Shown piece after piece: positions 23,098 to 40,786 of a stretch of 64,000 bases of DNA (within the stretch, counting starts at the first letter, position 1; each line of letters opens with the position of its first letter). A program made the position numbers and the translations under genes. The stretch covers positions 18,250-82,249 of the forward strand of contig CAWCXS010000003.1 of assembly GCA_963799615.1 (NCBI GenBank). The letters are read 5' to 3'. The notes under the pieces were generated by a model. That model was given only the letters and a program-made list of their open reading frames with translations. It was not told the DNA's origin and did not search any database. The DNA is from an uncultured Gaiellaceae bacterium. Its GTDB lineage: Bacteria > Actinomycetota > Thermoleophilia > Gaiellales > Gaiellaceae.

Positions 23098-24315
23098 CTA
23101 CTTGACGAGGCTGAGCAGCTTGAACATCGGCAGGTACATGCTGATGATGATCACGCCGACCATCATGCCGACGCCGACCATCATCAACGGCTCGATGATC
23201 GAGGTCAGGGCCTGGATCGACGCGTCGACCTCGTCCTCGTAGAAGTCGGCCACCTTCGAGAGCATCTTCTCGAGCTCGCCGGTCTCCTCACCGATCTTCA
23301 CCATCTGCGCCACCATTGGAGGGAAGATGGCGCTGTCGATCAGCGGCTGGGCGATCGAGGCACCTTCCTGCACGCGCAGCCGCAGGCTCGCGGTCTCTTC
23401 CTCGACGACCCAGTTGCCCGTCGTCTGCGCGGTGATCTCGAGCGCGCGCATGATGTCCACGCCCGACGCGATCAGCGTCGAGAGCGTGCGCGACCAGCGT
23501 GCCATCGCGACCTTCAGCACGACCGAGCCGATTCCCATCGGGACGCGCAGCTTGAAGCGATCCCATGCCTGCCGGCCTGGCTCTGTCTTCTTCCACTTCT
23601 TGAACCCGAAGATGATGGCAAACACGGCGGGGAAGATGATGTACCAGTAGCCGCGCAGTCCGTTGGACGCGTGCATCACGTACTGGGTCAGGGTCGGCAG
23701 CTTGCCGCCGAGCTGGTCGAAGATCTTGACGAAGATCGGGACGAGGAACAGCAGCATTCCGGTCATCACGAGCGATGCGAACGTGAGCACGACCATCGGG
23801 TAGATCATCGCCCCCTTGACGCGGCGCTTGATCTTCTGCTCCTTCTCGATCTGAATCGCGACGCGGTCGAGCACGGTGTCGAGCACACCGGCGGCCTCGC
23901 CGGCCTCCACCATGGCGATGTAGAGGCGGCTGAAGATCTCCGGGTGCTGCGACATCGCCTCCGACAGCAGCGAGCCCGTCTCGACGTTCTCCCGGATGTC
24001 GTCGATGACGCCCTGCAGTGCCGGATCGTCCGTCTGCTGCTCCAGGATGACGAGTGCCGTCACGACGGAGAGGCCGGCCTCGATCATCGTCGCGAACTGA
24101 CGCGAGAACACCTGCAGCGACTTCGGCTTCATCTTCTTGTCGAAGAAGCCACGCTTGGACTTGACGACCGTTGGGCCTGTCAGCTCCTCGACCCACTGGG
24201 CGAGGAGCCCGTTGCCGCGGAGCTGATCGCGGGCGGCCGAGAGGTCCGGTGCCTGCAGCTCGCCGGCGAGCTCGACGCCCTGGGCGTTGATCGCGCTATA
24301 GGAAAACGACGGCAT
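23098..24315 (-). CDS. pilC: Type IV pilus platform protein (T2SS F family)
   Basis: FSRQFATMIEAG, AGEAAGVL, YP.VV, MVKIGEETGEL, IEPLM. Confidence 0.95.
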   Translation of the reverse strand: MPSFSYSAINAQGVELAGELQAPDLSAARDQLRGNGLLAQWVEELTGPTVVKSKRGFFDKKMKPKSLQVFSRQFATMIEAGLSVVTALVILEQQTDDPALQGVIDDIRENVETGSLLSEAMSQHPEIFSRLYIAMVEAGEAAGVLDTVLDRVAIQIEKEQKIKRRVKGAMIYPMVVLTFASLVMTGMLLFLVPIFVKIFDQLGGKLPTLTQYVMHASNGLRGYWYIIFPAVFAIIFGFKKWKKTEPGRQAWDRFKLRVPMGIGSVVLKVAMARWSRTLSTLIASGVDIMRALEITAQTTGNWVVEEETASLRLRVQEGASIAQPLIDSAIFPPMVAQMVKIGEETGELEKMLSKVADFYEDEVDASIQALTSIIEPLMMVGVGMMVGVIIISMYLPMFKLLSLVK

Positions 24316-24365: not shown

Positions 24366-25229
24366 CTACTTCGACGCGGTCGAGACATCGACAGTCGAGG
24401 AACCCGTCGTCGTCGGCGCGGTCTGACCGGACGTGTCGGCGGCCGAGGATCCGGCCGTGAAGCCTTCGACCGTCTCAGGCGTCGTACCGGTGTACACGAG
24501 CTTGATCTGGTAGCGGGCACCCGTCGCCGTGTTGACGAGCGTGATGCTCTTGTCCATCTTCAGCACGAGCAGCTTCCCGTTGGCGAACGCACCTCCGGCA
24601 ACGCCGATCTTCGCGGTCTTGGGCTTGATCTTGACCAGCTCGAACACGGGGTCGCTCGCCGGGAACGTGCCTTTCGCCTGCAGGTACTCGGCCGTGCCGT
24701 TGATCACGAGCGTGGCGTCGGTCAGCACTGGCTCCTCGGGCTTGGCGGGGGCTGCTCCTGCCGATCCGCCCGCTCCAGCCGACCCGGTGTCACCCGTTGC
24801 CGGCGTGGTCGAGGTGCCCGCGGGGGGCGTACCCGACCCGGTGTCGGGCGTGGTCGTCGTGTCCGAGGTGACCGGCGACGTGTCGGAGGCCGGCTTGTCG
24901 CCCACCTGCTGGACGAAGGGGTCCTTCGTCGCGAAGAGCGAGAACGAGATCAGCTTGCCCTGCGTCGGGTCGCGGCAGGGGTCGTCGACGAGGCTCCGGA
25001 GAGCACCGGCGCCGTTGGAGTCGCAGTGCGGCGTCCGCGTAGCAGGCGTGGCGTGGCGCCTGCCGTCGTGTCGACCGGCACCGCGGCAGGCGTGGAGCGA
25101 GCTGCCGACAGTCAGCTTGGGTACCTGGATCACGGCGATCACGACCAGCACGGCTCCGATGACGCCGAGCATGATCTTCTGCTTGCGCGCCTTGGCTGCC
25201 GCCGGGTCTATTTTCTGGGTCTTCGCCAT
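24366..25229 (-). CDS. Pilus alignment protein, PilP/GspC-like position (TM anchor, KDPF motif, beta-rich C-terminus)
   Basis: Last gene of the pilT-M/N-O run; TGATG coupling with pilO; one segment may be locally frameshifted. Confidence 0.6.
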   Translation of the reverse strand: MAKTQKIDPAAAKARKQKIMLGVIGAVLVVIAVIQVPKLTVGSSLHACRGAGRHDGRRHATPATRTPHCDSNGAGALRSLVDDPCRDPTQGKLISFSLFATKDPFVQQVGDKPASDTSPVTSDTTTTPDTGSGTPPAGTSTTPATGDTGSAGAGGSAGAAPAKPEEPVLTDATLVINGTAEYLQAKGTFPASDPVFELVKIKPKTAKIGVAGGAFANGKLLVLKMDKSITLVNTATGARYQIKLVYTGTTPETVEGFTAGSSAADTSGQTAPTTTGSSTVDVSTASK

Positions 25230-25891
25230 CAGGGAGTCGCTCCTGCTGCGACCGTCCCGCTGGAGGACGGAGTAGTGGACGGGGTCGTACCTGTGTCGGC
25301 AGCCGGGGGCGCGCCGCTGAAGGTGAAGGACTGAAGGGTGACGTCGCCTTGACGACCGGGAACTCCGCGTCGTCGGCCTTGGCGAGATCGACGCCCGTGA
25401 CCGAGTACAGCCGTCCACGGGCATCGAGCGTGCTCTTGCGAACGCGAACCAGCCCTCGGATGTCCCCGAGGAATCCCGAGACGCTGCTGAAGCGGCCTTG
25501 CAGCACGAGGGTCAGGGGCTGGGCGCTGTAGCCGGAACCCGCGACGGCCGAGGCAGGAGCGATCGAGGTGAACGTGAGCGAGTGCGTTCTTCGCGACGCG
25601 GTTGACGTCGAGAATCACCCCGGCCATGCCGACGCCGTCGGGCAACGCCTTCGTGAGCCGGTACGTGTCGCTCGCCCGAACCTTGACATCGGCCGAAGGA
25701 CGCGCGAGCGCCTGCTGCCGCGTGACGAGCTCGGTCTGCGCGGCCTCGACACTCTGCTTGAGGTCACCGACCTTGCTCCGCTGCGGAGACACGACCAGGA
25801 GCCAGGCAGCGGCGAGCACGAGGACGAGCCCGAACCCACCGACCGCGAGGCGAGCGCGGGTCGACGAAAGACGTTCGTTGAGCGCCTTCAT
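25229..25891 (-). CDS. pilO: Type IV pilus protein PilO-like; compensating frameshifts near 25570 and 25350
   Basis: TM segment, coiled coil, KALPDGVGMAGVILDV, then LQGRFSSVSGFLGDIR...LYSVTGVDL in an alternate frame. Confidence 0.7.
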   Translation of the reverse strand: MKALNERLSSTRARLAVGGFGLVLVLAAAWLLVVSPQRSKVGDLKQSVEAAQTELVTRQQALARPSADVKVRASDTYRLTKALPDGVGMAGVILDVNRVAKNALAHVHLDRSCLGRRGFRLQRPAPDPRAARPLQQRLGIPRGHPRAGSRSQEHARCPWTAVLGHGRRSRQGRRRGVPGRQGDVTLQSFTFSGAPPAADTGTTPSTTPSSSGTVAAGATP

Positions 25892-28632: not shown

Positions 28633-29811
28633 CTAGCTCCCGGCCACTCGCAGCGCCGCGCCGAGTCCCGGCGTGGCGGCAGGTGCGCCGTCGTTGGTCA
28701 TGGCAGGAATCGGAATACCGGCTCGTTCGAGCGCGGACACGAGCGCCTCGGGCCGGCTGGAGCGCGCGATCGCCTCCGGCACCGTGACGAGTTGCTTCTG
28801 GACGAGCTCCGTCAGCGACTGCTCCATCGTCTGCATGCCGCGTCGGGTGCCGGTCTGCATGTACGAGTAGACCTGTTCGACCTTTCCCTGACGGATCAGG
28901 TTTCGGATCGCGTCATCGAGGAACAGGATCTCCAGCCCGACTGCCCGACCCTTTCCGTCGATTGTCGGTAGCAAGGTCTGCGTGACGATGCCCTGCAGCG
29001 AGTTCGCGAGCTGCATGCGCACCTGATCCTGCTGCGACGCCGGAAAGACGTCGATGATGCGGTCGATCGTGCTCGGCGCGCTCTGGGTGTGGAGCGTGGC
29101 AAAGACGAGGTGGCCGGTCTCGGCCGCGGTCAGCGCAGTCGCAATCGTCTCGAGGTCGCGCATCTCGCCGAGGAGGATCACGTCCGGGTCCTGCCGGAGC
29201 GCCCCTCGCAGAGCCTCGGCGAACCCGGTCGCGTCATGCCCGACCTCGCGCTGGTTGATGATGCAGCGCTTGTGGTTGTGGAGGAACTCGATCGGATCCT
29301 CGATCGTGATGATGTGGTCGGTGCGCGTCCGGTTGATCTCGTCGATGATCGACGCGAGCGTCGTCGACTTGCCCGAGCCGGTCGGGCCGGTGACGAGCAC
29401 GAGGCCGCGCGGCTTCGACGTCAGCTCATGGAGGCTCGCGGGCAGGCCGAGCTCCTCGAGCGAGCGGATGTCGGTGGGGATCGTGCGAAACGCGGCGGCC
29501 AGGCTCTCGCGCTGATAGAAGGCGTTGACGCGGAAGCGTGCAAGCCCGCGGATGCCGTAGGCGAAGTCCAGCTGGCGGTTCAGCTCGAGCAGCTTCTGCT
29601 GCTCGGTCGTGGTGATGCGATAGACCAGCTCGCGCACGAGATCGGGCGTCAGCACCGGAAACTCTGACAGCAGCTCGATGTGCCCGTGCAGGCGCACGGC
29701 GGGCAGCGAGCCGGCCGTCAGGTGCAGGTCGGAGGCACCCAGTGTGACGGTGCGCTCGAGTACCGCATCGACGCCAAGCGGGGCGGCGTTGGGCTGGTCG
29801 GAGAGCTCCAC
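28633..29811 (-). CDS. pilT: Type IV pilus retraction ATPase
   Basis: GPTGSGKSTT, TIEDPIE, LRQDPDVILLGEMRD, TLHT, AIRNLIRQ. GTG start at 29811. Confidence 0.95.
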   Translation of the reverse strand: MELSDQPNAAPLGVDAVLERTVTLGASDLHLTAGSLPAVRLHGHIELLSEFPVLTPDLVRELVYRITTTEQQKLLELNRQLDFAYGIRGLARFRVNAFYQRESLAAAFRTIPTDIRSLEELGLPASLHELTSKPRGLVLVTGPTGSGKSTTLASIIDEINRTRTDHIITIEDPIEFLHNHKRCIINQREVGHDATGFAEALRGALRQDPDVILLGEMRDLETIATALTAAETGHLVFATLHTQSAPSTIDRIIDVFPASQQDQVRMQLANSLQGIVTQTLLPTIDGKGRAVGLEILFLDDAIRNLIRQGKVEQVYSYMQTGTRRGMQTMEQSLTELVQKQLVTVPEAIARSSRPEALVSALERAGIPIPAMTNDGAPAATPGLGAALRVAGS

Positions 29812-29820
29812 GGGGGCATC

Positions 29821-29847
29821 TATCGGCAGCCACCCCGCGCACCTTGA
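29821..29847 (-). promoter_or_regulatory. Sigma-28-like promoter of pilT
   Basis: TCAA-N16-GCCGATA. Confidence 0.7.
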
Positions 29848-30050
29848 GCCTTGGCTCGGAGCAGGCCCCATGCGAGCTCCACACGCGCCGTGACGGAGCT
29901 CGTACACGTCGTGGATCGTGCGGTGTATCCCCAACAACGAGGGATGCAGCTCTCCCTCAATATCACTCTTCCGGGGAGTGCGAGCAATGCGTAGAGCGCC
30001 GATAACGCGGGAGTCGGTTTCATCCTCTATCGCTCCAGAAGGAGTCGCAC

Positions 30051-30473
30051 ATGTTTCTGAACAAGCTGCGGCAGCGGCTCGCACGGGAGGAGTCGGGCTT
30101 CACGCTCATCGAGCTCCTGATCGTGCTCGTGATCATCGGCATCCTGCTCGCGATCGCTGTCCCGTCCTACATCGGCTTCAAGGCTCGTGCTGCACAGACG
30201 GCCGCGCAGGCCAACGTCCGCTCCGCGATTCCCGCCGTCGAGGCGTTCTACGCCGACAACGAGGGTTCCGCCACGGACATCGATGCCAACGCTGCCACCT
30301 CTGGCTACCAGGGCATGACGCTCGCCCTGCTGCAGACCATCGACGCCGGCGTCAAGCTGTCGGTGATCAAGAGCCTCACGACCACCTCCTACTGCGTCGA
30401 CTACACAGGAGGCGGCAAGTCCGCCAGCAAGACCGCGGCCGCAGGCACGATCGTCAACACCGCCTGTCCGTAA
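30051..30473 (+). CDS. pilA: Type IVa major pilin, copy 1
   Basis: ESG|FTLIELL class III signal, C-terminal Cys pair, AGGAG RBS, upstream GCCGATAA at 29998-30005. Confidence 0.9.
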   Translation: MFLNKLRQRLAREESGFTLIELLIVLVIIGILLAIAVPSYIGFKARAAQTAAQANVRSAIPAVEAFYADNEGSATDIDANAATSGYQGMTLALLQTIDAGVKLSVIKSLTTTSYCVDYTGGGKSASKTAAAGTIVNTACP

Positions 30474-31148: not shown

Positions 31149-31697
31149 GTGAATACCTTCGCCGCCTCCACGCGCCGGGTTCCACGCCCCGCCCTGATCG
31201 GGATCGTCGCACTCGTCGCCGCTTTCGCAGTTCTGATGCTCGTCCGCTCCGGCGTGTTCGGCGGCTCCTCCCCCGAATCCGTCCCCGTCGCAACTCCCGC
31301 GCATGCCGCGACCCCGGCGGCGCCTCAGCCCGCTCAGAGCAAGCCGGTAGTCAAGCCCAAGGTGGTGCTCCTCGCCGGCCTTCCCACGCCTGTCGCGCAC
31401 GCGCTGCGCTACTCCAAGGTCGTTGTCGTCTCTCTCTACGCAGGACCGGCGAAGAGCGATCGACCGGCCGTCGGGCAAGCACGCATAGGCGCCCGTAGCG
31501 CCGGTGCAGGCTTCGTCGCCATGAACGTGATCGACGACCGCAAGGCTGCGGCGCTGGTTCCGTTCGTCGGACCCGTCTCCGCTCCCGCGATGATCGTCGT
31601 GCGCCGGCCCGGAAAGATCGTCGCCCGCTTCGAGGGCTCGGTCGACAGCGCGGTCGTCGCACAGGCGGCGCACAACGCCGGCGCCCGCCGTCGTTGA
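31149..31697 (+). CDS. Membrane-anchored protein with thioredoxin-like topology, no CxxC
   Basis: TM segment, Pro/Ala linker, then VVVVSLY...FVAMNV...PAMIVVRRPGKIVARFEG. Confidence 0.65.
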   Translation: MNTFAASTRRVPRPALIGIVALVAAFAVLMLVRSGVFGGSSPESVPVATPAHAATPAAPQPAQSKPVVKPKVVLLAGLPTPVAHALRYSKVVVVSLYAGPAKSDRPAVGQARIGARSAGAGFVAMNVIDDRKAAALVPFVGPVSAPAMIVVRRPGKIVARFEGSVDSAVVAQAAHNAGARRR

Positions 31698-33971: not shown

Positions 33972-34721
33972 TCACGAGCCCAGGCCCGAGTACCAGTCGA
34001 TGATCTGGTCACCGAAGAAGAGCGCCACGAGAGCCCCGAGCGCGAGGAACGGCACGAGCGGAATCGCCATCTTGCGGGCCTTTGAGCCGTGGCGGGCGAG
34101 CAGCACGAGCGACGGGACCAGCGCGGCCACGAACCCGATCAGGAGCGCGGCACCGACGGTGCGCCCCAGCATCGCACCGAGCAGGAGGGTGAGCTTGACG
34201 TCTCCCATCCCGAGCCCTGCCGGATGGATGAGCGCGAACACGAGCATGAGGGTGGACGCGGCCAGCGCGGCCGCGACCCATTCCACAGACGGATCGATCG
34301 CCGTGTGTGCGAGCAGGCAGATGACGAAAGCGGGCATGACGATCCGGTTCGGCACCAGGCGATAGCGCAGGTCGGCAGCCGAGAGCGTGACGAGCGTGAC
34401 GCAGAAGAACGCCGCCAGGGCGGCGTACGCGGTCGCGCCGAAATCGAGCACGCAGACTACGACGAGGATTGCCGTGAGCACCTCGACCGCGGGATAGAGC
34501 GGCGAGATCGCTTCCTGACAGTGGCGGCAGCGCCCGTGCAGCAGGATGTACGAGAGCACCGGGACGTTGTCACGGGCAGCGATGGGCGCATCGCACGCGA
34601 GGCATGCAGAGCGCGGGTGGGAGATCGAGCGCCGTAGGGGCACGCGGGCCGCGACGACGTTGACGAAGCTGCCGAACGCCAGAGCGGGCGGGAGCGCAAG
34701 TGCTGCGAGTGCAAGGTTCAC
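33972..34721 (-). CDS. pilD: Prepilin peptidase/N-methyltransferase
   Basis: GSFVNVV, CLAC...CRHC, ADLRY..PN, GMGDVKL, PLVPFLALG. Confidence 0.95.
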   Translation of the reverse strand: MNLALAALALPPALAFGSFVNVVAARVPLRRSISHPRSACLACDAPIAARDNVPVLSYILLHGRCRHCQEAISPLYPAVEVLTAILVVVCVLDFGATAYAALAAFFCVTLVTLSAADLRYRLVPNRIVMPAFVICLLAHTAIDPSVEWVAAALAASTLMLVFALIHPAGLGMGDVKLTLLLGAMLGRTVGAALLIGFVAALVPSLVLLARHGSKARKMAIPLVPFLALGALVALFFGDQIIDWYSGLGS

Positions 34722-34729
34722 GGTCTGCA

Positions 34730-34777: not shown

Positions 34778-36250
34778 CTAGGGGTTGACCTCGCGGAACA
34801 GGGCGACCGTGTACGCCTCGTCGAGCACGGGGAACCAAGGCGGCGGCAGATACTGGAGCGTCGTGTCGTAGTCGTAGTTGCGGACCTGGAACATGTCCAT
34901 GTAGGGGTGCTGGTTCGACGCGCTCGAGCCCGTGTGCGTGGCCGTGCCCTTGCAGCCGCAGCTGTTCCACGAGTGCCGGGCGCCGTTCTGCGCGATCACG
35001 GCGGCATGCCAGTCGAGATCGTACGGCCCCCACGAGGCGACGATGACGTCGTTCTTGCCGATCAGGCCGAGCACGTCGTCGCCGTCCAGGACATATGAGA
35101 TGTTGCCCGCGACGATCATGTCGTCGTTCGCGGCGATCGTGACTCTCCCGTTGACGACCGAGGCCTGCGTCGGCCACGACACGACCGCCGTGGTCTCGAC
35201 GTAGACGGCGCCGTTCGTGGGCACTGGATAGGTCGAGATCGACCCGGAACAGGTCGGCTGCGTGCCGCCCGGGTCGTTACCCCCGGTTCGCGTGCAGCCC
35301 TGAGCGGTGAAGGTGCCGTTCGCGAGCAGCACGAACTTCCAGATGGGGAAGCTGGCGTCGAAGTACTCGCCCCCAGTGATCGCCGCCGTCTTGAGGTCGT
35401 CGAGGGATGAGGTGAAGTTGCTGAAGTTGATCGGCGCCGGGAGCTGCGTGCGAATCGTCGTGCCGGGGTATTTCTGGGCTCCGTTCTGCAGGCTGGCAGG
35501 TCCGGTGATCGTCCCTTCGGCGTAGAGATTGGCCGTGGCGGTGCCCGCGTGATCGATGTCGTGGTTGTTGCCGCTCGAGTCTCGCCCGGCGTAGATCTTG
35601 CCGTTCGTCGTCGCAGTCGACCCGGCGCTGTAGTCGGAGTTCGTGATCATCTGGAAGTCGGACAGCAGCGACCAGTGCACCCATTCCTGCACGGCGCGCC
35701 ACTGGGTGGTGCTGGTGCCAGGGGCGCACGAGCTCGAGGTCGAGTACGCGGGGCTGCAGATCTTCCGGCCGGTGGAGAGAATCTGGATGCTCTCGTTCGT
35801 GGCGCTGGGCGGCGTGATCTGCAGGTTGTACTCGTAGCCGTTGGCGAGCTGGCACCAGTTGTCCTTGCCGCCGGCGATGCTCGGATCCCAGATCGCGGTA
35901 CCGGTCCAGTCGATGCCGAGGGCTCCCGTTTTCGTGGCGTTACAGGTGGTGCCGTTCGGCAGTGGGTCGACGTCCGCTCCCGCCGTCGGCCGGCGCGTCG
36001 ACTCTGCTGGATGCACGTGGTGGAGGTAGTACGTCTTGTCGTCGACGAGCTTGGACAGGTAATCGTCCAGGCCGGCCTCTGCCGCCTGGAAGGCCGCGTT
36101 GCTGGTTCGCGCGCTGTTGCTGCGCGTGGACTCGCTCGTGACCAGGTCGATCAGCGCGACCGAGACCATGCTGAGGAAGGCGACCAGGATGACGACGGTG
36201 AGCATCGCGACGCCGTCTTCCCGGCGGCCGATGCGGCGCAGAATCGACAT
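34778..36250 (-). CDS. PilX/GspK-like minor pilin with large C-terminal domain (~490 aa)
   Basis: EDG|VAMLT (no E5), AFQAAEAGL (PilX N-terminal signature), Cys-containing beta-rich C-terminus. Confidence 0.8.
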   Translation of the reverse strand: MSILRRIGRREDGVAMLTVVILVAFLSMVSVALIDLVTSESTRSNSARTSNAAFQAAEAGLDDYLSKLVDDKTYYLHHVHPAESTRRPTAGADVDPLPNGTTCNATKTGALGIDWTGTAIWDPSIAGGKDNWCQLANGYEYNLQITPPSATNESIQILSTGRKICSPAYSTSSSCAPGTSTTQWRAVQEWVHWSLLSDFQMITNSDYSAGSTATTNGKIYAGRDSSGNNHDIDHAGTATANLYAEGTITGPASLQNGAQKYPGTTIRTQLPAPINFSNFTSSLDDLKTAAITGGEYFDASFPIWKFVLLANGTFTAQGCTRTGGNDPGGTQPTCSGSISTYPVPTNGAVYVETTAVVSWPTQASVVNGRVTIAANDDMIVAGNISYVLDGDDVLGLIGKNDVIVASWGPYDLDWHAAVIAQNGARHSWNSCGCKGTATHTGSSASNQHPYMDMFQVRNYDYDTTLQYLPPPWFPVLDEAYTVALFREVNP

Positions 36251-36855
36251 CACGTCGCCCTCAGAGCGGCACTCGTCGTGTACGTGAACTGACGGCCGGG
36301 CGTTGTCCCGGTGGCGACCGAGAGCGTGGTCGTGACCGACCGCACGTTGGCAGGGGTCGTGGTCGCGTTGGGCGTCGGGCTCGCGCCGTCGAAATAGGTG
36401 AAGATCGTCGCGTTCTTGATCGAGTCGACGAGCGGGGCCCACGCGCTGAGCGCGGGGAACGTCCCCCAGGGCGGTCCTCCGGTCAGCGGGCTCGTCGCCG
36501 TCGCCCGCTCGAGCGTGCCTGCGTTGAGGCGATAGGCGATCAGCCGCAGGTGGTAGGGCTGCTGGTTGTCGAGCGAGTAGAACTGCAGCTGCGTCCCCGT
36601 CGACATCTTGATCACGGTCTGCGTCGTGTCGCCGTAGTACGACTGCCGGACCTCGCGTGCGATCCGGTCGGTGGCGGCTCGCACCTCGGTTTGCAGCAGG
36701 TTCTGTTCCTGGATCTCGCCGCTGTGGTGGATCGCGGAGCTGAAGATGAGCGAGAACGCACCGAGGATGAGGCCGAGGATCGAGATCACGACCAGCATCT
36801 CGCTGAGGGTGAAGCCGTCCTCCCGCTTCAGCCGGCTGAATGTGCGGCGCATCAT
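36250..36855 (-). CDS. PilW/GspJ-like minor pilin
   Basis: EDG|FTLSEML, IAREVRQ. Confidence 0.85.
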   Translation of the reverse strand: MMRRTFSRLKREDGFTLSEMLVVISILGLILGAFSLIFSSAIHHSGEIQEQNLLQTEVRAATDRIAREVRQSYYGDTTQTVIKMSTGTQLQFYSLDNQQPYHLRLIAYRLNAGTLERATATSPLTGGPPWGTFPALSAWAPLVDSIKNATIFTYFDGASPTPNATTTPANVRSVTTTLSVATGTTPGRQFTYTTSAALRAT

Positions 36856-39608
36856 GGCGTGTAGGGGCAGGTCAGGGAGGCGTTCATGTTGACGGTGACC
36901 GTGACTGTCGCGGCCGCGGCCGAGAGCGCGACGGTGCCCGTCCTATTGACGCCGGCAGTACAGGTTGCTCCCACCGACGCCTTGACCGTGTACGTGTAGC
37001 CGGTTGCTGCCGGCATCAGAACAGTGACCGTCGCCGGGCTGGTGTTGGTCGTGCTCTTCGGAGAGGGCGAGGTGGTGTACGCGGGTGCTGCGCCTGCGGT
37101 TCCGTTCGGGCCGCCTGTGACGCTGATCACGACGGACTTGTTCTGGTAAGCGGCGCCGGCCTGCTGCACGGTGATCGTGACCGTCTTCGTCGGGAGGATC
37201 GCGACGGTCGTCGCCGCACCACCGGCCGGAACAGCGATCGTGGAACTTCCGGAGCCCGTGTTCTTCGTCACGGTGACGGTGTAGTTCGTCGCCGACACCG
37301 GCACGGTCATCGCGACGATGCCCGTGATCGGGTCAGTCGTGGCTGTGTACGTCTGCGGGCTGTTCGGGCCGCCCGTGACGGTGACGGTGGCGCCGCCGGC
37401 AGCGAGTGTTGCCCACGTGGCAGTGACGGTCAAAGTCGCCACCGGGGTGAGCGCCACGGTCGTCGCCGCGCCTGCCAGCGGCACCGAGGCGACCGTCGAC
37501 GAGCCGGAGCCGGTGCCCTTCGTGACGGTGACGGTGTAGTTGTTGGACGTGGTCGTGGGGACGGTGATCAGGGCGATGCCGGTGACGGCGTCCGTCGTGC
37601 CCGTATACGTCGTGGGGCTGTCTGGACCGCCCGAGACGGTGACGGATGCGCTGAGCGCGGGCTTGCCCGCCCACGTGGCCGTCACGCTCAGGGTCGCCGT
37701 CGGCAGGTTGATGGTGCCGGTCGTCGACGCGACTACCGTCTGGCTCGTGAGCTGCGTCGTCTGGCCGTTCTTCGTCGCCTGGAAGGTGTAGTTCGCGCCC
37801 AGCGGCACCGAGGGGAACGTGACGACGCCGGAGGCGGTCGTCGTCAGCGACTGGTTGATCCCGTACGGCCCACCGGTGACCTGGACGGTGGCGCCGTTCA
37901 CGAGTGCGCCGAGCCACTTGACGGTCAGCTGGACGGTTCCGGCCGGCGGATTCGGGAGCGTCAGGTTGACCGTGTTCGAACCGGCGTTCACGGTCGTCCC
38001 AGTGTTGGTGGTAGTGCCCTTGGTCGCGGTGACGGTGTAGCCCGAGCCGGTGGGAACGTTGGTGAAGACGATCTGGCCGCTGCCGTTCGTCGAGCCGCTC
38101 GCATTGATCGTGAAGGGTCCGCCGGTGAGCGTGACCGTCGCGCCCGAGGCAGGGGACGCGAGCTGCGTGACGTTCACGGTGAGCGTCGCGGTCGGCGGGT
38201 CCGGAAGCGTGACCGTGACGTTGTTTGGACCGGCCACCGTCACTGCCGTTGTCGTGTTCGCAGTCGTGCTCCGTGTCGCCGCGACCGTGTAGCCCGTCCC
38301 GGCCGGGACGTTGCTGAACGTGACGTTGCCGCTCGCGTCGGTCGTCGGGTCCGGCGAGACGGTGATGTTGTTCGGGCCACCTGTGAGATGGACCGTCGCG
38401 TTGGGGGCGTTCGCACCGAGCTGCTGCACGTTGACCGTCAGCGAGCCGGACGGGCACGCGCCGAGCACGAGCGTCGCCGACGTCGTCGGATCCGCGGGAT
38501 AGTTGCTCCAGGTCGGGGCCGACAGCGTCGCGCAGAGCGGCGTCGTGGTGAGCGCCTTGATCGTGTAGGAGACGCCCGGGACGACCTTCTGGCCGGCCAC
38601 GGTCGTCACGGTGACGAGGCCGGTGTTCGTCGTGAACGTGCTCGTGTTGCCGTTGAGCGGCGTCGAGGAGGTCACCTGCACCGTCGCCGTACCCGTGTAG
38701 AGCACGCCGGGCGAGCTCTCGACACGAACGTTGATCGTGCCGGGCTTGAAGATCCGAATCTGCGACGTTGGAGCGGTCTGGCTCGGCGCGACCTGCAGAT
38801 GCGCAACAGGCGCCGGCGGCAGATCGACGGGAAGCGTCTCGTAGCCGCTCAGGCTGGCGGAAAGATCGTAGTACTCCGTTGGGCCGGTCGGCGTCATCGC
38901 CGCGAAGGAGGCCAGTCCGTTCGCGTCCGAGACGTCCGTGCGCATCGGATCGGGACCATTGTCGATCGTCACGACGGCGCCCTGCAGCGGCGAGTTGGGC
39001 TTGTAGTCCATCACCTGGACGTTCACGATCGACTTGTTGATGCCGCCGAACGGCGCACGTGAGACAGGCGCCACGTAAGTGACGCCCTGCGCAAGCCGCT
39101 TCCCGTCTCGGTCTCGCGTGACGGTGACGGTGACCTTCTTGTAGTTCGCCGCCGTTGCGTAACTCGTCGGAGTCGGGTCACCGACATACGTGATCTGGGT
39201 CGAGATGGTCGCCGCGAGCCCGTCATGCGCAAGCGCGACCGATCCATCGACATCCCCCGGCGGGTTACACGGCGTCGCCGTCGCGCAATCGATGCCGACG
39301 TCGGCGTACTGGAGATTTCGGATCGACTCGATCTCGTCGTTCACCGCCTGTTCCGACAGCGTCCGCTCGCGCGCCACGCTGTGCGCCGCGATCGACGAGG
39401 TGAGCACGCCGGCGAGCGCGGTCGCGACGATGATCATCAGCACCGCCGCCATGATTGTCTCGATCAGCGTGAAGGCCGACTCGGAGCGCGCACGGGCGAG
39501 CAGCCGAAGGCGGAAACGTGCAATCGGAGAGCTCCGGGCCGCTGATTCCACAGGCTCACCATCGGGAGGCATGCGGTGGCTGGAAACCCCCTTCTGGGGG
39601 AGGGCCAT
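36852..39608 (-). CDS. Giant PilV/GspI-like minor pilin with ~8 carboxypeptidase-regulatory-like beta-sandwich repeats
   Basis: ESA|FTLIETI, EQAVNDEIESIR, then ~80-aa repeats (ATV.LTGGP...TD.SG...VP....YTV.AT). Confidence 0.85.
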   Translation of the reverse strand: MALPQKGVSSHRMPPDGEPVESAARSSPIARFRLRLLARARSESAFTLIETIMAAVLMIIVATALAGVLTSSIAAHSVARERTLSEQAVNDEIESIRNLQYADVGIDCATATPCNPPGDVDGSVALAHDGLAATISTQITYVGDPTPTSYATAANYKKVTVTVTRDRDGKRLAQGVTYVAPVSRAPFGGINKSIVNVQVMDYKPNSPLQGAVVTIDNGPDPMRTDVSDANGLASFAAMTPTGPTEYYDLSASLSGYETLPVDLPPAPVAHLQVAPSQTAPTSQIRIFKPGTINVRVESSPGVLYTGTATVQVTSSTPLNGNTSTFTTNTGLVTVTTVAGQKVVPGVSYTIKALTTTPLCATLSAPTWSNYPADPTTSATLVLGACPSGSLTVNVQQLGANAPNATVHLTGGPNNITVSPDPTTDASGNVTFSNVPAGTGYTVAATRSTTANTTTAVTVAGPNNVTVTLPDPPTATLTVNVTQLASPASGATVTLTGGPFTINASGSTNGSGQIVFTNVPTGSGYTVTATKGTTTNTGTTVNAGSNTVNLTLPNPPAGTVQLTVKWLGALVNGATVQVTGGPYGINQSLTTTASGVVTFPSVPLGANYTFQATKNGQTTQLTSQTVVASTTGTINLPTATLSVTATWAGKPALSASVTVSGGPDSPTTYTGTTDAVTGIALITVPTTTSNNYTVTVTKGTGSGSSTVASVPLAGAATTVALTPVATLTVTATWATLAAGGATVTVTGGPNSPQTYTATTDPITGIVAMTVPVSATNYTVTVTKNTGSGSSTIAVPAGGAATTVAILPTKTVTITVQQAGAAYQNKSVVISVTGGPNGTAGAAPAYTTSPSPKSTTNTSPATVTVLMPAATGYTYTVKASVGATCTAGVNRTGTVALSAAAATVTVTVNMNASLTCPYTP

Positions 39609-39610
39609 CC

Positions 39611-40786
39611 CTAGCGCAACGCCGACGCAGCCGCCGGCGCGGTCAGATCGTCCGTCGTCGAAGGGCTGCCGGCCGGTGCGGCGGCGGCCGCCGCCTCACG
39701 TTCGTACGCCGCCTTGTCCTTCTCGGCCCGTTCGAGCGCGACCAGAAAGTCGTGCCGGTTCGTGGCGGCATTCGAGGCGACATCACGGTCCACCTCGCCG
39801 GCGATGACGAGCTCGATCAGGGACTGGGCGAACGTCCGCATGTCGTAGAACTCTCCGGCGGCGATCGCGTCGGTGATCTCGTCAGGCCGGTTTTCGCGAA
39901 TCAGGTCCTGGATGCGCGCGTTGCTCACCATCACCTCGACGGAGGGGACTCTGCCGCCGTCGACGCGCGGCAACAGGCGCTGGCTGATCACGCCGCGCAG
40001 CGTGCCCGCGAGGATCGAGCGGATCTGCTGCTGCTTCGCGGGCGGGAAGAACTCGATCATGCGTCCCACCGTCTCCGCCGCGTCGATCGTGTGCAGCGTC
40101 GAGAAGACGAGGTGGCCGGACTCGGCGGCCTGCAGTGCGGTGTGCGCGGTTTCGGTGTCGCGAAGCTCGCCGATCAGGATCACATCCGGGTCTTGACGCA
40201 GCACCCGCCGCAACGCCTGCTCGAAGCTCAGCGTGTCGAGACCCACCTCACGCTGGTTGACGATGCAGCCGCGATCCGGATGGAGGATCTCGATCGGGTC
40301 CTCGATCGTGACGATGTGCTGGCGCCGCGTCCGGTTGACGTGGTCGAGCATCGACGCGAGCGTGGTCGTCTTACCCGAGCCGGTGGCGCCGGTGACGAGG
40401 ACGAGCCCGCGGCGCTCCTCGGCAAGGCGGGTGACGCCCGTCGGGAGGCCGAGCATCGAGAAGTTGGGGATCTCGCTCGGGATGACGCGAAACGCGAACG
40501 AGATCGCTCCGCGCTGGCGAAAGCCGTTGACCCGGAAGCGGGGCAGCGTCGGGTGCGAGAACGCGATGTCGAGGTCTCCGGTCTCCTCGAAGACGTCGCG
40601 CCGCTTGGGCGAGATCTGCGTGACGGCGTCGAGGACTGCCTCGAGGTCAGGCTCGGTGAGAGCGGGTGCGTCCTGCAGCTGCTCGAGGTCGCCGTCGAGC
40701 CGGACGACCGGCGGCTGACCGAGCTTGAGGTGAACGTCGCTGGCACCGCTGTCGACGGCGCGCTTGAGCATGGTGACGAGATCCAT
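39611..40786 (-). CDS. Second PilT/PilU-family ATPase
   Basis: GATGSGKTTT, TIEDPIE, LRQDPDVILIGELRD, STLHT, RIQDLIRE. Confidence 0.92.
   Translation of the reverse strand: MDLVTMLKRAVDSGASDVHLKLGQPPVVRLDGDLEQLQDAPALTEPDLEAVLDAVTQISPKRRDVFEETGDLDIAFSHPTLPRFRVNGFRQRGAISFAFRVIPSEIPNFSMLGLPTGVTRLAEERRGLVLVTGATGSGKTTTLASMLDHVNRTRRQHIVTIEDPIEILHPDRGCIVNQREVGLDTLSFEQALRRVLRQDPDVILIGELRDTETAHTALQAAESGHLVFSTLHTIDAAETVGRMIEFFPPAKQQQIRSILAGTLRGVISQRLLPRVDGGRVPSVEVMVSNARIQDLIRENRPDEITDAIAAGEFYDMRTFAQSLIELVIAGEVDRDVASNAATNRHDFLVALERAEKDKAAYEREAAAAAAPAGSPSTTDDLTAPAAASALR

Follow-up and report, generated by a model that had tools for sequence, protein, structure and literature searches.

A modular type IV minor pilin with an eight-domain stalk, probably adhesive, in a pilus locus of an uncultured Gaiella

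What is a protein of ~900 amino acids (aa) doing in the PilV/GspI position of a pilus locus, where classical proteins have fewer than ~200 aa? The question is raised by a 64,000-nucleotide (nt) stretch of contig CAWCXS010000003.1 (the whole of this stretch is called the window below) from a soil actinobacterium of the genus Gaiella, whose own genome (3.57 Mb) is 93% complete. The gene is an intact open reading frame (ORF) of 918 codons on the reverse strand, counted from the ATG at 39608. To our knowledge, no studies exist of type IV pili in the early-branching soil Actinomycetota, most of which are uncultured, and we know of only one organism, Streptococcus sanguinis, for which target binding by pili that lack PilY1 is understood in detail. 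As judged from the sequence and from predicted structures, the product is probably a modular type IV minor pilin that forms an adhesive stalk at the pilus tip. It does not constitute a new category, but belongs to the already catalogued "modular pilin" design.

Architecture of the protein

From its N-terminus, the protein consists of a class III signal, a 144-aa pilin module, and eight beta-sandwich repeats of ~85 aa (Table 1). An earlier reading of the same DNA (the sequence-only reading) had described a pilin of ~900 aa with about eight tandem beta-sandwich repeats, and this outline held: the ORF encodes 918 aa, and an iterated hidden Markov model (HMM) of the repeat recovers eight of eight copies, with domain E-values from 5.6e-05 (R2) to 7.8e-26 (R3). 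The repeat bounds, in residues, are 190-278, 279-384, 385-470, 471-553, 554-634, 635-720, 721-806, and 807-918. The C-terminus (...SLTCPYTP) has neither an LPXTG motif nor a membrane segment, which rules out a sortase-anchored protein.

The prepilin signal and the start codon

The N-terminus reads ...RLLARARSESA|FTLIETIMAAVLMIIVATALAG, a class III signal with Ala at position -1 and Glu at +5, just as the sequence-only reading had it (ESA|FTLIE, Ala at -1). Such signals are defined by a hydrophilic leader that ends in Gly or Ala, followed by ~20 hydrophobic residues and often Glu5 (PMC10191384), so that Ala at -1 is no argument against processing. Within the family Gly is the rule. It occupies -1 in 94 of 96 homologues, in the context G|F(T/S)L(I/V)E (the census covers those 96 of 120 listed homologues that show the motif within their first 90 residues), and Ala is found only in this protein and in a relative with 83% identity (P0003). 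Because both proteins have it, we take the Ala to be real and lineage-specific rather than a sequencing slip. Many homologues carry a precomputed match to PF07963 (N_methyl).

Translation probably does not begin at the ATG that opens the ORF. A GTG at 39551 lies 9 nt 3' of CCGAT, a box resembling a -10 element, and the full layout is GGGGGTTTCC, 16 nt, CCGAT, 9 nt, GTG. The same geometry recurs at the starts of pilD, pilT, and the gene at 31149 (CCGAT, 9-10 nt, GTG in each case), and pilT2 has TAAAGG…GCCGATGA and then ATG. In Gaiella occulta, the same blocks are separated by a spacer of the same length (16 nt) and different sequence, and the source annotation starts at the equivalent GTG (MGTTST…). 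Three homologues (P0005, P0014, and P0052) are likewise called from the equivalent codon. Against the GTG, the frame in G. occulta, too, stays open up to an in-frame ATG farther upstream. When translated, the opening ~20 codons of the long ORF (…GVS…PPDGEPV) seem to be conserved as far as distant homologues; as DNA, they coincide with the promoter-like element also seen ahead of other genes in the locus. It should be noted that CCGAT-N9-GTG alone is not enriched in the window (five found, 3.9 expected), so the argument rests on conservation in G. occulta and on the homologue gene calls. By this reading of the DNA, the true start is probably GTG 39551, which would give an 899-aa precursor with a 26-aa leader. 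Thus, the extent that the sequence-only reading assigned to the ORF stands, but the true start probably lies 19 codons 3' of its ATG. The mature protein has 873 aa whichever start applies.

The element itself (GGGGGTTTCC…CCGAT) matches the WhiG/FliA consensus (TAAA / GCCGATAA) weakly. Promoters of this type have been mapped upstream of type IV pilus genes in Rubrobacter, which belongs to the sister class (PMC8325347). The layout suggests that the minor-pilin cassette may have a near-leaderless transcript of its own, besides the pilT2 promoter.

A side observation concerns the public record for this very gene (P0002, 866 aa), which starts at Met53. This start drops the leader and the first seven mature residues, so that the prepilin motif is hidden. 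About one-fifth of the listed homologues are truncated at the N-terminus in the same way.

The pilin module

An AlphaFold2 (AF2) model of the 144-aa module, built from 23 homologues (predicted local distance difference test score, pLDDT, 83), places a long N-terminal helix (residues 3-52) on a four-stranded antiparallel sheet, the lollipop form of a pilin. In a Foldseek search against the PDB, the top two matches were XcpV (5bw0_B; probability 1.00, template modeling [TM] score 0.68 on the target) and EpsI (2ret_A; probability 0.99). The GspI-family matches have TM-scores of 0.67-0.68 on the target, and the lower-ranked matches are unrelated noise. The length of the module is constant (137-152 aa in 96 homologues), and the pilin head carries a cysteine pair, Cys108/Cys114. 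The claim of a pilin domain in the PilV/GspI position, also made in the sequence-only reading, agrees with this GspI-like predicted fold and with the conserved cassette of I-, J-, and K-type genes described below.

The repeats

In the full-length AF2 model (49 sequences; pLDDT 84.4), eight all-beta domains follow the pilin module; the predicted TM-score, 0.44, is what a beads-on-a-string arrangement would be expected to give. Between the pilin module and the stalk is a linker of ~13 residues with lower pLDDT. By fold, the best PDB match of the stalk is the Bacillus anthracis TIE protein (5e-12), followed by the sortase-pilus proteins PitA and BcpA and a streptococcal ancillary pilin; further matches are SdrD A2-A3-B1-B2 and the MG domains of alpha-2-macroglobulin. 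A phmmer search of the stalk against the PDB gave no useful matches. Two Pfam profiles are matched above their cut-offs: CarboxypepD_reg (PF13620; 38.7 bits versus 32.3, over three matched stretches) and SpaA/prealbumin-like (PF17802; 24.5 bits versus 23.1). In terms of predicted structure, then, the repeats are CnaB/prealbumin-type stalk domains of the kind found in Gram-positive surface proteins, and the beta-sandwich stalk proposed from the letters alone reappears as a chain of such domains in the model and in the fold matches.

Two details of the sequence-only reading need adjustment. The GGP core that it gave as typical of the repeats is present in R3-R8, but R1 has NGP and R2 has neither. 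Its "close duplicates," R6 and R7, are indeed 68% identical as proteins (R3 and R4, 54%), but the term is too strong for a pair with 73% nucleotide identity. The longest exact nucleotide run that they share is 17 nt, and Tandem Repeats Finder reported no array. These three results rule out a recent tandem duplication or a phase-variable copy number. Because the repeats are old at the DNA level, rapid switching of copy number is unlikely.

In composition, residues 190-918 contain 21.7% Thr and 9.5% Gly, individual repeats contain 27-38% Thr plus Ser, and there is almost no charge (R3-R8 are free of Glu, and R4, R5, and R8 are free of both Asp and Glu). Isopeptide or ester cross-links of the CnaB/TIE type were considered and ruled out, because several repeats have no acidic residue and thus lack the catalytic acid. 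Cysteines occur in pairs. Cys359/Cys385, around R2, is kept in ~61% of the aligned homologues. The R8 pair is made up of Cys883, which is 63% conserved, and Cys914, which lies in the C-terminal …TCP… motif and does not vary among 49 homologues. These features fit an extracellular protein with a specialized distal domain.

Homologues and repeat number

A search with the full-length protein matched 164 proteins at E<=0.001, and the 120 of them that were listed are 535 to 1460 aa long, come from Gaiella, Gaiellales, and Thermoleophilia, and go by names such as "PulG," "PilV," and "carboxypeptidase regulatory-like." They contain three to 15 repeats, with modes at five, six, seven, and 10. A profile of the pilin module matches 4,197 cluster representatives at E<=0.001 and 126 at <=1e-30, in a search of 1.84 billion proteins. 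The best 150 of these matches are 135 to 1460 aa long, and 132 further proteins among these 150 have zero to nine detectable repeats, mostly one to three. Repeat copy number, which the sequence-only reading had proposed comparing among homologues, is therefore variable (0 to 15 overall). The variability that it suspected is real on an evolutionary timescale, but nothing points to recent, slippage-type change.

The first domain is R1 in nearly all homologues, and it is the middle of the array that expands and contracts. The columns of R7 are filled in only 25% of 49 aligned homologues, the closest relative (P0003) has a mature length of 870 aa as compared to 873 aa, and the orthologue in G. occulta F2-233 (798 aa) has seven repeats. 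A homologue is present in 37 of 151 sampled Thermoleophilia genomes, including seven of 24 in the same family.

The cassette and its locus

From the gene overlaps, the stalked pilin is translationally coupled to a J-type and a K-type minor pilin. The ATG of the 201-aa pilin overlaps the stop codon of the stalked pilin (ATGA), and its own stop overlaps the start of the 490-aa protein (the overlaps in the cassette are of ATGA and TGATG type). The 201-aa protein is a candidate J-type pilin: it has GspH/ComGF-like matches at its N-terminus and a weak T2SSJ match (E=0.04). The 490-aa protein matches PilX_N over its first 100 aa (E=0.0015), and syntenic homologues reach 26.6 and 31.3 bits (cut-off, 25.5). 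For its ~400 C-terminal residues, neither Pfam nor NCBIfam nor the PDB offers a match by sequence (phmmer against the PDB included). No H-type gene (GspH/FimU) is evident in the cassette, whose I-, J-, and K-type genes are called V, W, and X below.

Around the cassette, the locus encodes what by sequence is a complete type IV pilus machine. In addition to the genes in Table 1, there are genes for PilB, a PilM-N fusion, a PilO/GspM-like protein, and two pilins of ~140-150 aa on the forward strand. The same V-W-X order is shared by G. occulta and other members of three Thermoleophilia families (f1, f4, and f6).

In a genome from another family (G024), two V-W-X cassettes lie next to each other (L018, G024:C7, 3437-10531), with a 191-aa GspH-like pilin between them. 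One has an ordinary 177-aa V and the other a 602-aa V with a highly acidic extension that is not made of Ig repeats. The difference between the two implies that the carrier module serves as a base for the grafting of various extensions. The range of zero to 15 repeats, taken together with the bare 177-aa V in the same cassette position, fits such a graft on a pilin carrier.

PilY1 and the envelope type

The sequence-only reading saw no pilY1 gene in the locus and suggested searching for one elsewhere. A search for PilY1 (PF05567) at E<=1 gave no match, whether in the locus or elsewhere in the 3.57-Mb genome. Among 151 Thermoleophilia genomes, there was likewise none at E<=0.001; no control genome matched either, so that the sensitivity of this search is undemonstrated, and absence from the class is supported, not proven. 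Secretin (PF00263) also had no match, in a search that did match in control genomes. Both negative results are as expected for a monoderm-type pilus. Shahin et al. describe PilC/PilY1 as "absent in monoderms," where modular pilins are the tip effectors (PMC9934059), and modular pilins have already been proposed as an analogue of PilY1 (PMC8179133). The suggestion in the sequence-only reading that the protein replaces PilY1 is thus consistent with our searches, but it does not apply to this gene in particular, given that monoderms generally lack PilY1 (PMC9934059).

What the protein may do

The published concept is that modular pilins are presented at the pilus tip (PMC8179133, PMC9934059). In the reading that we favor, the prepilin peptidase encoded ~2 kb downstream would cleave the basic leader after Ala45 and leave 873 aa, comprising a GspI/PilV-type module with Glu5 and eight CnaB/prealbumin-like domains. 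In the membrane, the pilin module would pair with the co-translated J-type (201 aa) and Glu5-less PilX/K-type (490 aa) proteins, and this trio would prime pilus assembly and end at the filament tip. The uncharged, Thr/Ser-rich stalk would then project from the tip, by ~30 nm if extended (an estimate from ~3.5-4 nm per Ig-like domain and not a measurement), and may hold the conserved, Cys-stapled distal domain off the filament as an adhesive arm. In this way, the stalked pilin would fill the role that in diderm bacteria belongs to PilY1, which is not a pilin. The analysis itself shows the structure of the gene, the predicted folds, the synteny of the cassette, and how the stalk varies across the family. 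We infer every step of this course of events (processing, formation of the I-J-K complex, tip location, adhesion, and the ligand), and we regard the whole, from PilD processing and nucleation to presentation of the distal domain for adhesion, as likely on balance, though far from assured.

Several points weigh against it. Ala at -1 is an exception within the family (two of 96), and cleavage by the PilD of this locus is a prediction only. The protein has no match to PF07963 at E<=0.01, and scores 18.2 bits against NF007660. The E-values of the Foldseek matches to GspI proteins are weak (0.05-0.2), a lenient Pfam scan gave no T2SSI or PilV profile match to the module at E<=10, and a PDB profile search with the module returned nothing relevant. 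Given the weak E-values and the lack of a sequence-profile link, the label "I-type" (GspI/PilV) is a structural and positional assignment, based on a predicted fold. The survey of 151 genomes for PilY1 was made without a working positive control. There is no terminal domain of a recognizable ligand-binding type, so that "adhesin" is said by analogy, and the large K-type partner could be the real binding head or a second tip module.

These last two points also bear on the alternative that survives best. In it, the protein primes assembly as above, but the stalk is a structural spacer or stopper, spanning or standing outside the thick monoderm wall, that is not adhesive; it would block re-entry of the tip complex upon retraction and leave any binding to the PilX-type partner. 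The domains are of a spacer type known from Gram-positive surface proteins, no ligand-binding module is recognizable, the K-type partner has its ~400 residues of unassigned function, and the locus has two PilT-like retraction ATPases. However, a conserved distal domain with an invariant Cys suggests a specific function at the far end, and a range of zero to 15 domains within one class is hard to square with an envelope of fixed thickness. We consider a purely structural stalk unlikely.

Another alternative concerns location. The protein could be a low-abundance pilin along the shaft, and not only at the tip, so that the filament bears lateral Ig-like arms. Raynaud et al. allow a shaft location if the linker is flexible (PMC8179133), and here the linker of ~13 residues has lower pLDDT; moreover, Glu5 is kept, so another subunit could dock beneath or above. 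Nevertheless, the module resembles an I-type initiator and not the major pilins, and the gene is coupled to J/K-type genes and not to the two major-pilin genes on the opposite strand; we regard lateral arms as quite improbable. Least probable of all is a cell-surface protein outside the pilus that uses the class III-type helix as a membrane anchor, whether uncleaved (Ala at -1) or cleaved but retained: the Ala is atypical for the family, the Pfam N_methyl threshold is not reached, and class III signals are known to occur on archaeal surface proteins that are not pilins, but the gene has a conserved cassette position and translational coupling with minor pilins, canonical G|FTLIE is found in 94 of 96 homologues, the module has a pilin fold, and Gly or Ala is accepted at -1.

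A broader idea can be put forward, although we consider it rather doubtful at present. In Thermoleophilia, and perhaps in other Actinomycetota as well, the trio may represent an ancient tip organelle common to monoderm-type pili, with an I-type arm of freely evolvable length (0-15 domains), a J-type subunit, and a large Glu5-less K-type subunit. The arm might then act as a molecular ruler that sets the reach of the Cys-stapled distal binding domain, its length tuned to habitat or envelope.

Relation to known systems

Modular pilins were defined by Raynaud et al. (2021), who catalogued >1,200 of them in 264 architectures (PMC8179133). The third most frequent architecture, IPR012902-PF13620 (66 proteins; Dataset S1 of the same paper), pairs the pilin module with PF13620, glossed there as a carbohydrate-binding-like fold (PMC8179133). 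The protein described here falls under this definition, in that it has a pilin module plus a domain that is not pilus-specific, with PF13620 above the gathering score. As in the other members, CarboxypepD_reg-type domain(s) come after a class III signal and a pilin module, and display on a filament is predicted. The catalogue entry is a database architecture only, whereas here there are eight copies (up to 15 in relatives), an I-type carrier, and an I-J-K cassette. Our literature search found no experimental study of any IPR012902-PF13620 modular pilin.

A further parallel is Streptococcus sanguinis, which also has monoderm-type pili without PilY1, and whose PilA, PilB (vWA), and PilC (lectin) are three minor pilins thought to form an assembly-priming tip complex that presents grafted modules (PMC8179133, PMC9934059). 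In that system, however, the I-like PilA is small, bare, and without Glu5, and the modules are on PilB and PilC. The Gaiella I-like subunit keeps Glu5 and carries the extension itself, as a long repetitive stalk and not as a single globular domain.

GspI/XcpV/EpsI and PilV (PDB 5bw0, 2ret, 3ci0), which supply the I subunit to the HIJK tip complexes of type II secretion and of type IVa pili, resemble the module in size and fold, in Glu5, and in having their gene beside J- and K-type genes. They differ in that no sequence-level relation is detectable, that classical members have no C-terminal extension, and that no H-type gene is evident here. CofB of enterotoxigenic Escherichia coli and TcpB of Vibrio cholerae are also large minor pilins in which the pilin module leads into beta-rich domains, and both are tip-located initiators of assembly (PMC8179133, PMC5207764). 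Unlike the Gaiella protein, they belong to type IVb pili, are trimeric, have two specialized domains instead of a tandem array, and are unrelated in sequence. Finally, the CnaB, SpaA, and SdrD-B stalks and the B. anthracis TIE protein (PDB 6fwv) share the beta-sandwich fold and the use of tandem arrays as stalks; here, in contrast, there is no LPXTG/sortase signal, and R4, R5, and R8 have no Asp or Glu for cross-link catalysis.

The underlying design has been published before, as have the lack of PilY1 in monoderms and the WhiG-type regulation of pilus genes in the sister class. What is new is the I-type carrier, the conserved I-J-K cassette in Thermoleophilia, the graded stalk of 0-15 domains, the conserved distal Cys-containing domain, and the probable correction of the start codon. 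The feature is real and well defined, and would not surprise a specialist. Its value lies in a machine that is both compact and complete and has a defined tip cassette of three genes, and in an entry point through a cultured relative: because G. occulta is cultured and has a seven-repeat orthologue, the pilin plus PF13620 architecture, the commonest of the multi-domain pilin types that are still uncharacterized, could be tested there.

Feature coordinates and neighboring genes

Table 1. Positions of the stalked pilin, its parts, and adjacent pilus genes in the window
Feature	Position	Strand	Basis
Stalked modular minor pilin, full ORF	36852..39608	-	164 homologues, E down to 0
Promoter-like element, GGGGGTTTCC + 16-nt spacer + CCGAT, within the 5' end of the long ORF	39561..39591	-	Blocks conserved
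Probable translation start, GTG (20th codon of the long ORF)	39549..39551	-	Element geometry, G. occulta, homologue gene calls
Leader peptide, basic, (M)ESAARSSPIARFRLRLLARARSESA, Ala at -1	39474..39551	-	Sequence reading
Pilin module, mature residues 1-144, alpha1 3-52 with Glu5 and four-stranded sheet	39042..39473	-	AF2, Foldseek
Repeat 1, proximal beta-sandwich	38775..39041	-	Repeat HMM
Repeat 2, divergent 106-aa beta-sandwich, Cys359-Cys385 pair	38457..38774	-	Repeat HMM
Repeats 3-7, GGP-core beta-sandwiches, variable mid-stalk	37191..38456	-	Repeat HMM
Repeat 7, lineage-specific extra copy	37191-37448	-	Column occupancy in alignment
Repeat 8, distal 112-aa domain, inserted loop, ends ...SLTCPYTP	36855..37190	-	Full-length AF2
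201-aa minor pilin, J-type candidate, G|FTLSE	36250..36855	-	PF07963 28.6 bits; T2SSJ E=0.04; synteny
490-aa PilX/K-type minor pilin, G|VAMLT, no Glu5, AFQAAEAG motif	34778..36250	-	PilX_N, synteny
Prepilin peptidase PilD, A24_N_bact + Peptidase_A24, directly downstream of the cassette	33972..34727	-	Pfam; start from CCGAT motif
PilT-like ATPase, second copy (pilT2), 391 aa, directly upstream	39611..40786	-	Pfam
PilT-like ATPase, 483 aa (long ORF)	28633-30084	-	Pfam
PilC	23098-24315		Pfam

A 740-aa frame is open on the opposite strand of the stalked pilin gene (36840-39062, +). Its translation is rich in Arg, Gly, and Asp, and we judged it to be a shadow frame typical of DNA with 68% G+C and not a gene. 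Two genes of the pilus locus have no Pfam match, one encoding 352 aa (24366-25424, -) and the other 182 aa (31149-31697, +); the latter starts at a CCGAT-N9-GTG of its own and contains one membrane segment. Both PilT-like ATPases are kept beside the cassette in G. occulta, with 83% identity for the 483-aa copy and 87% for pilT2.

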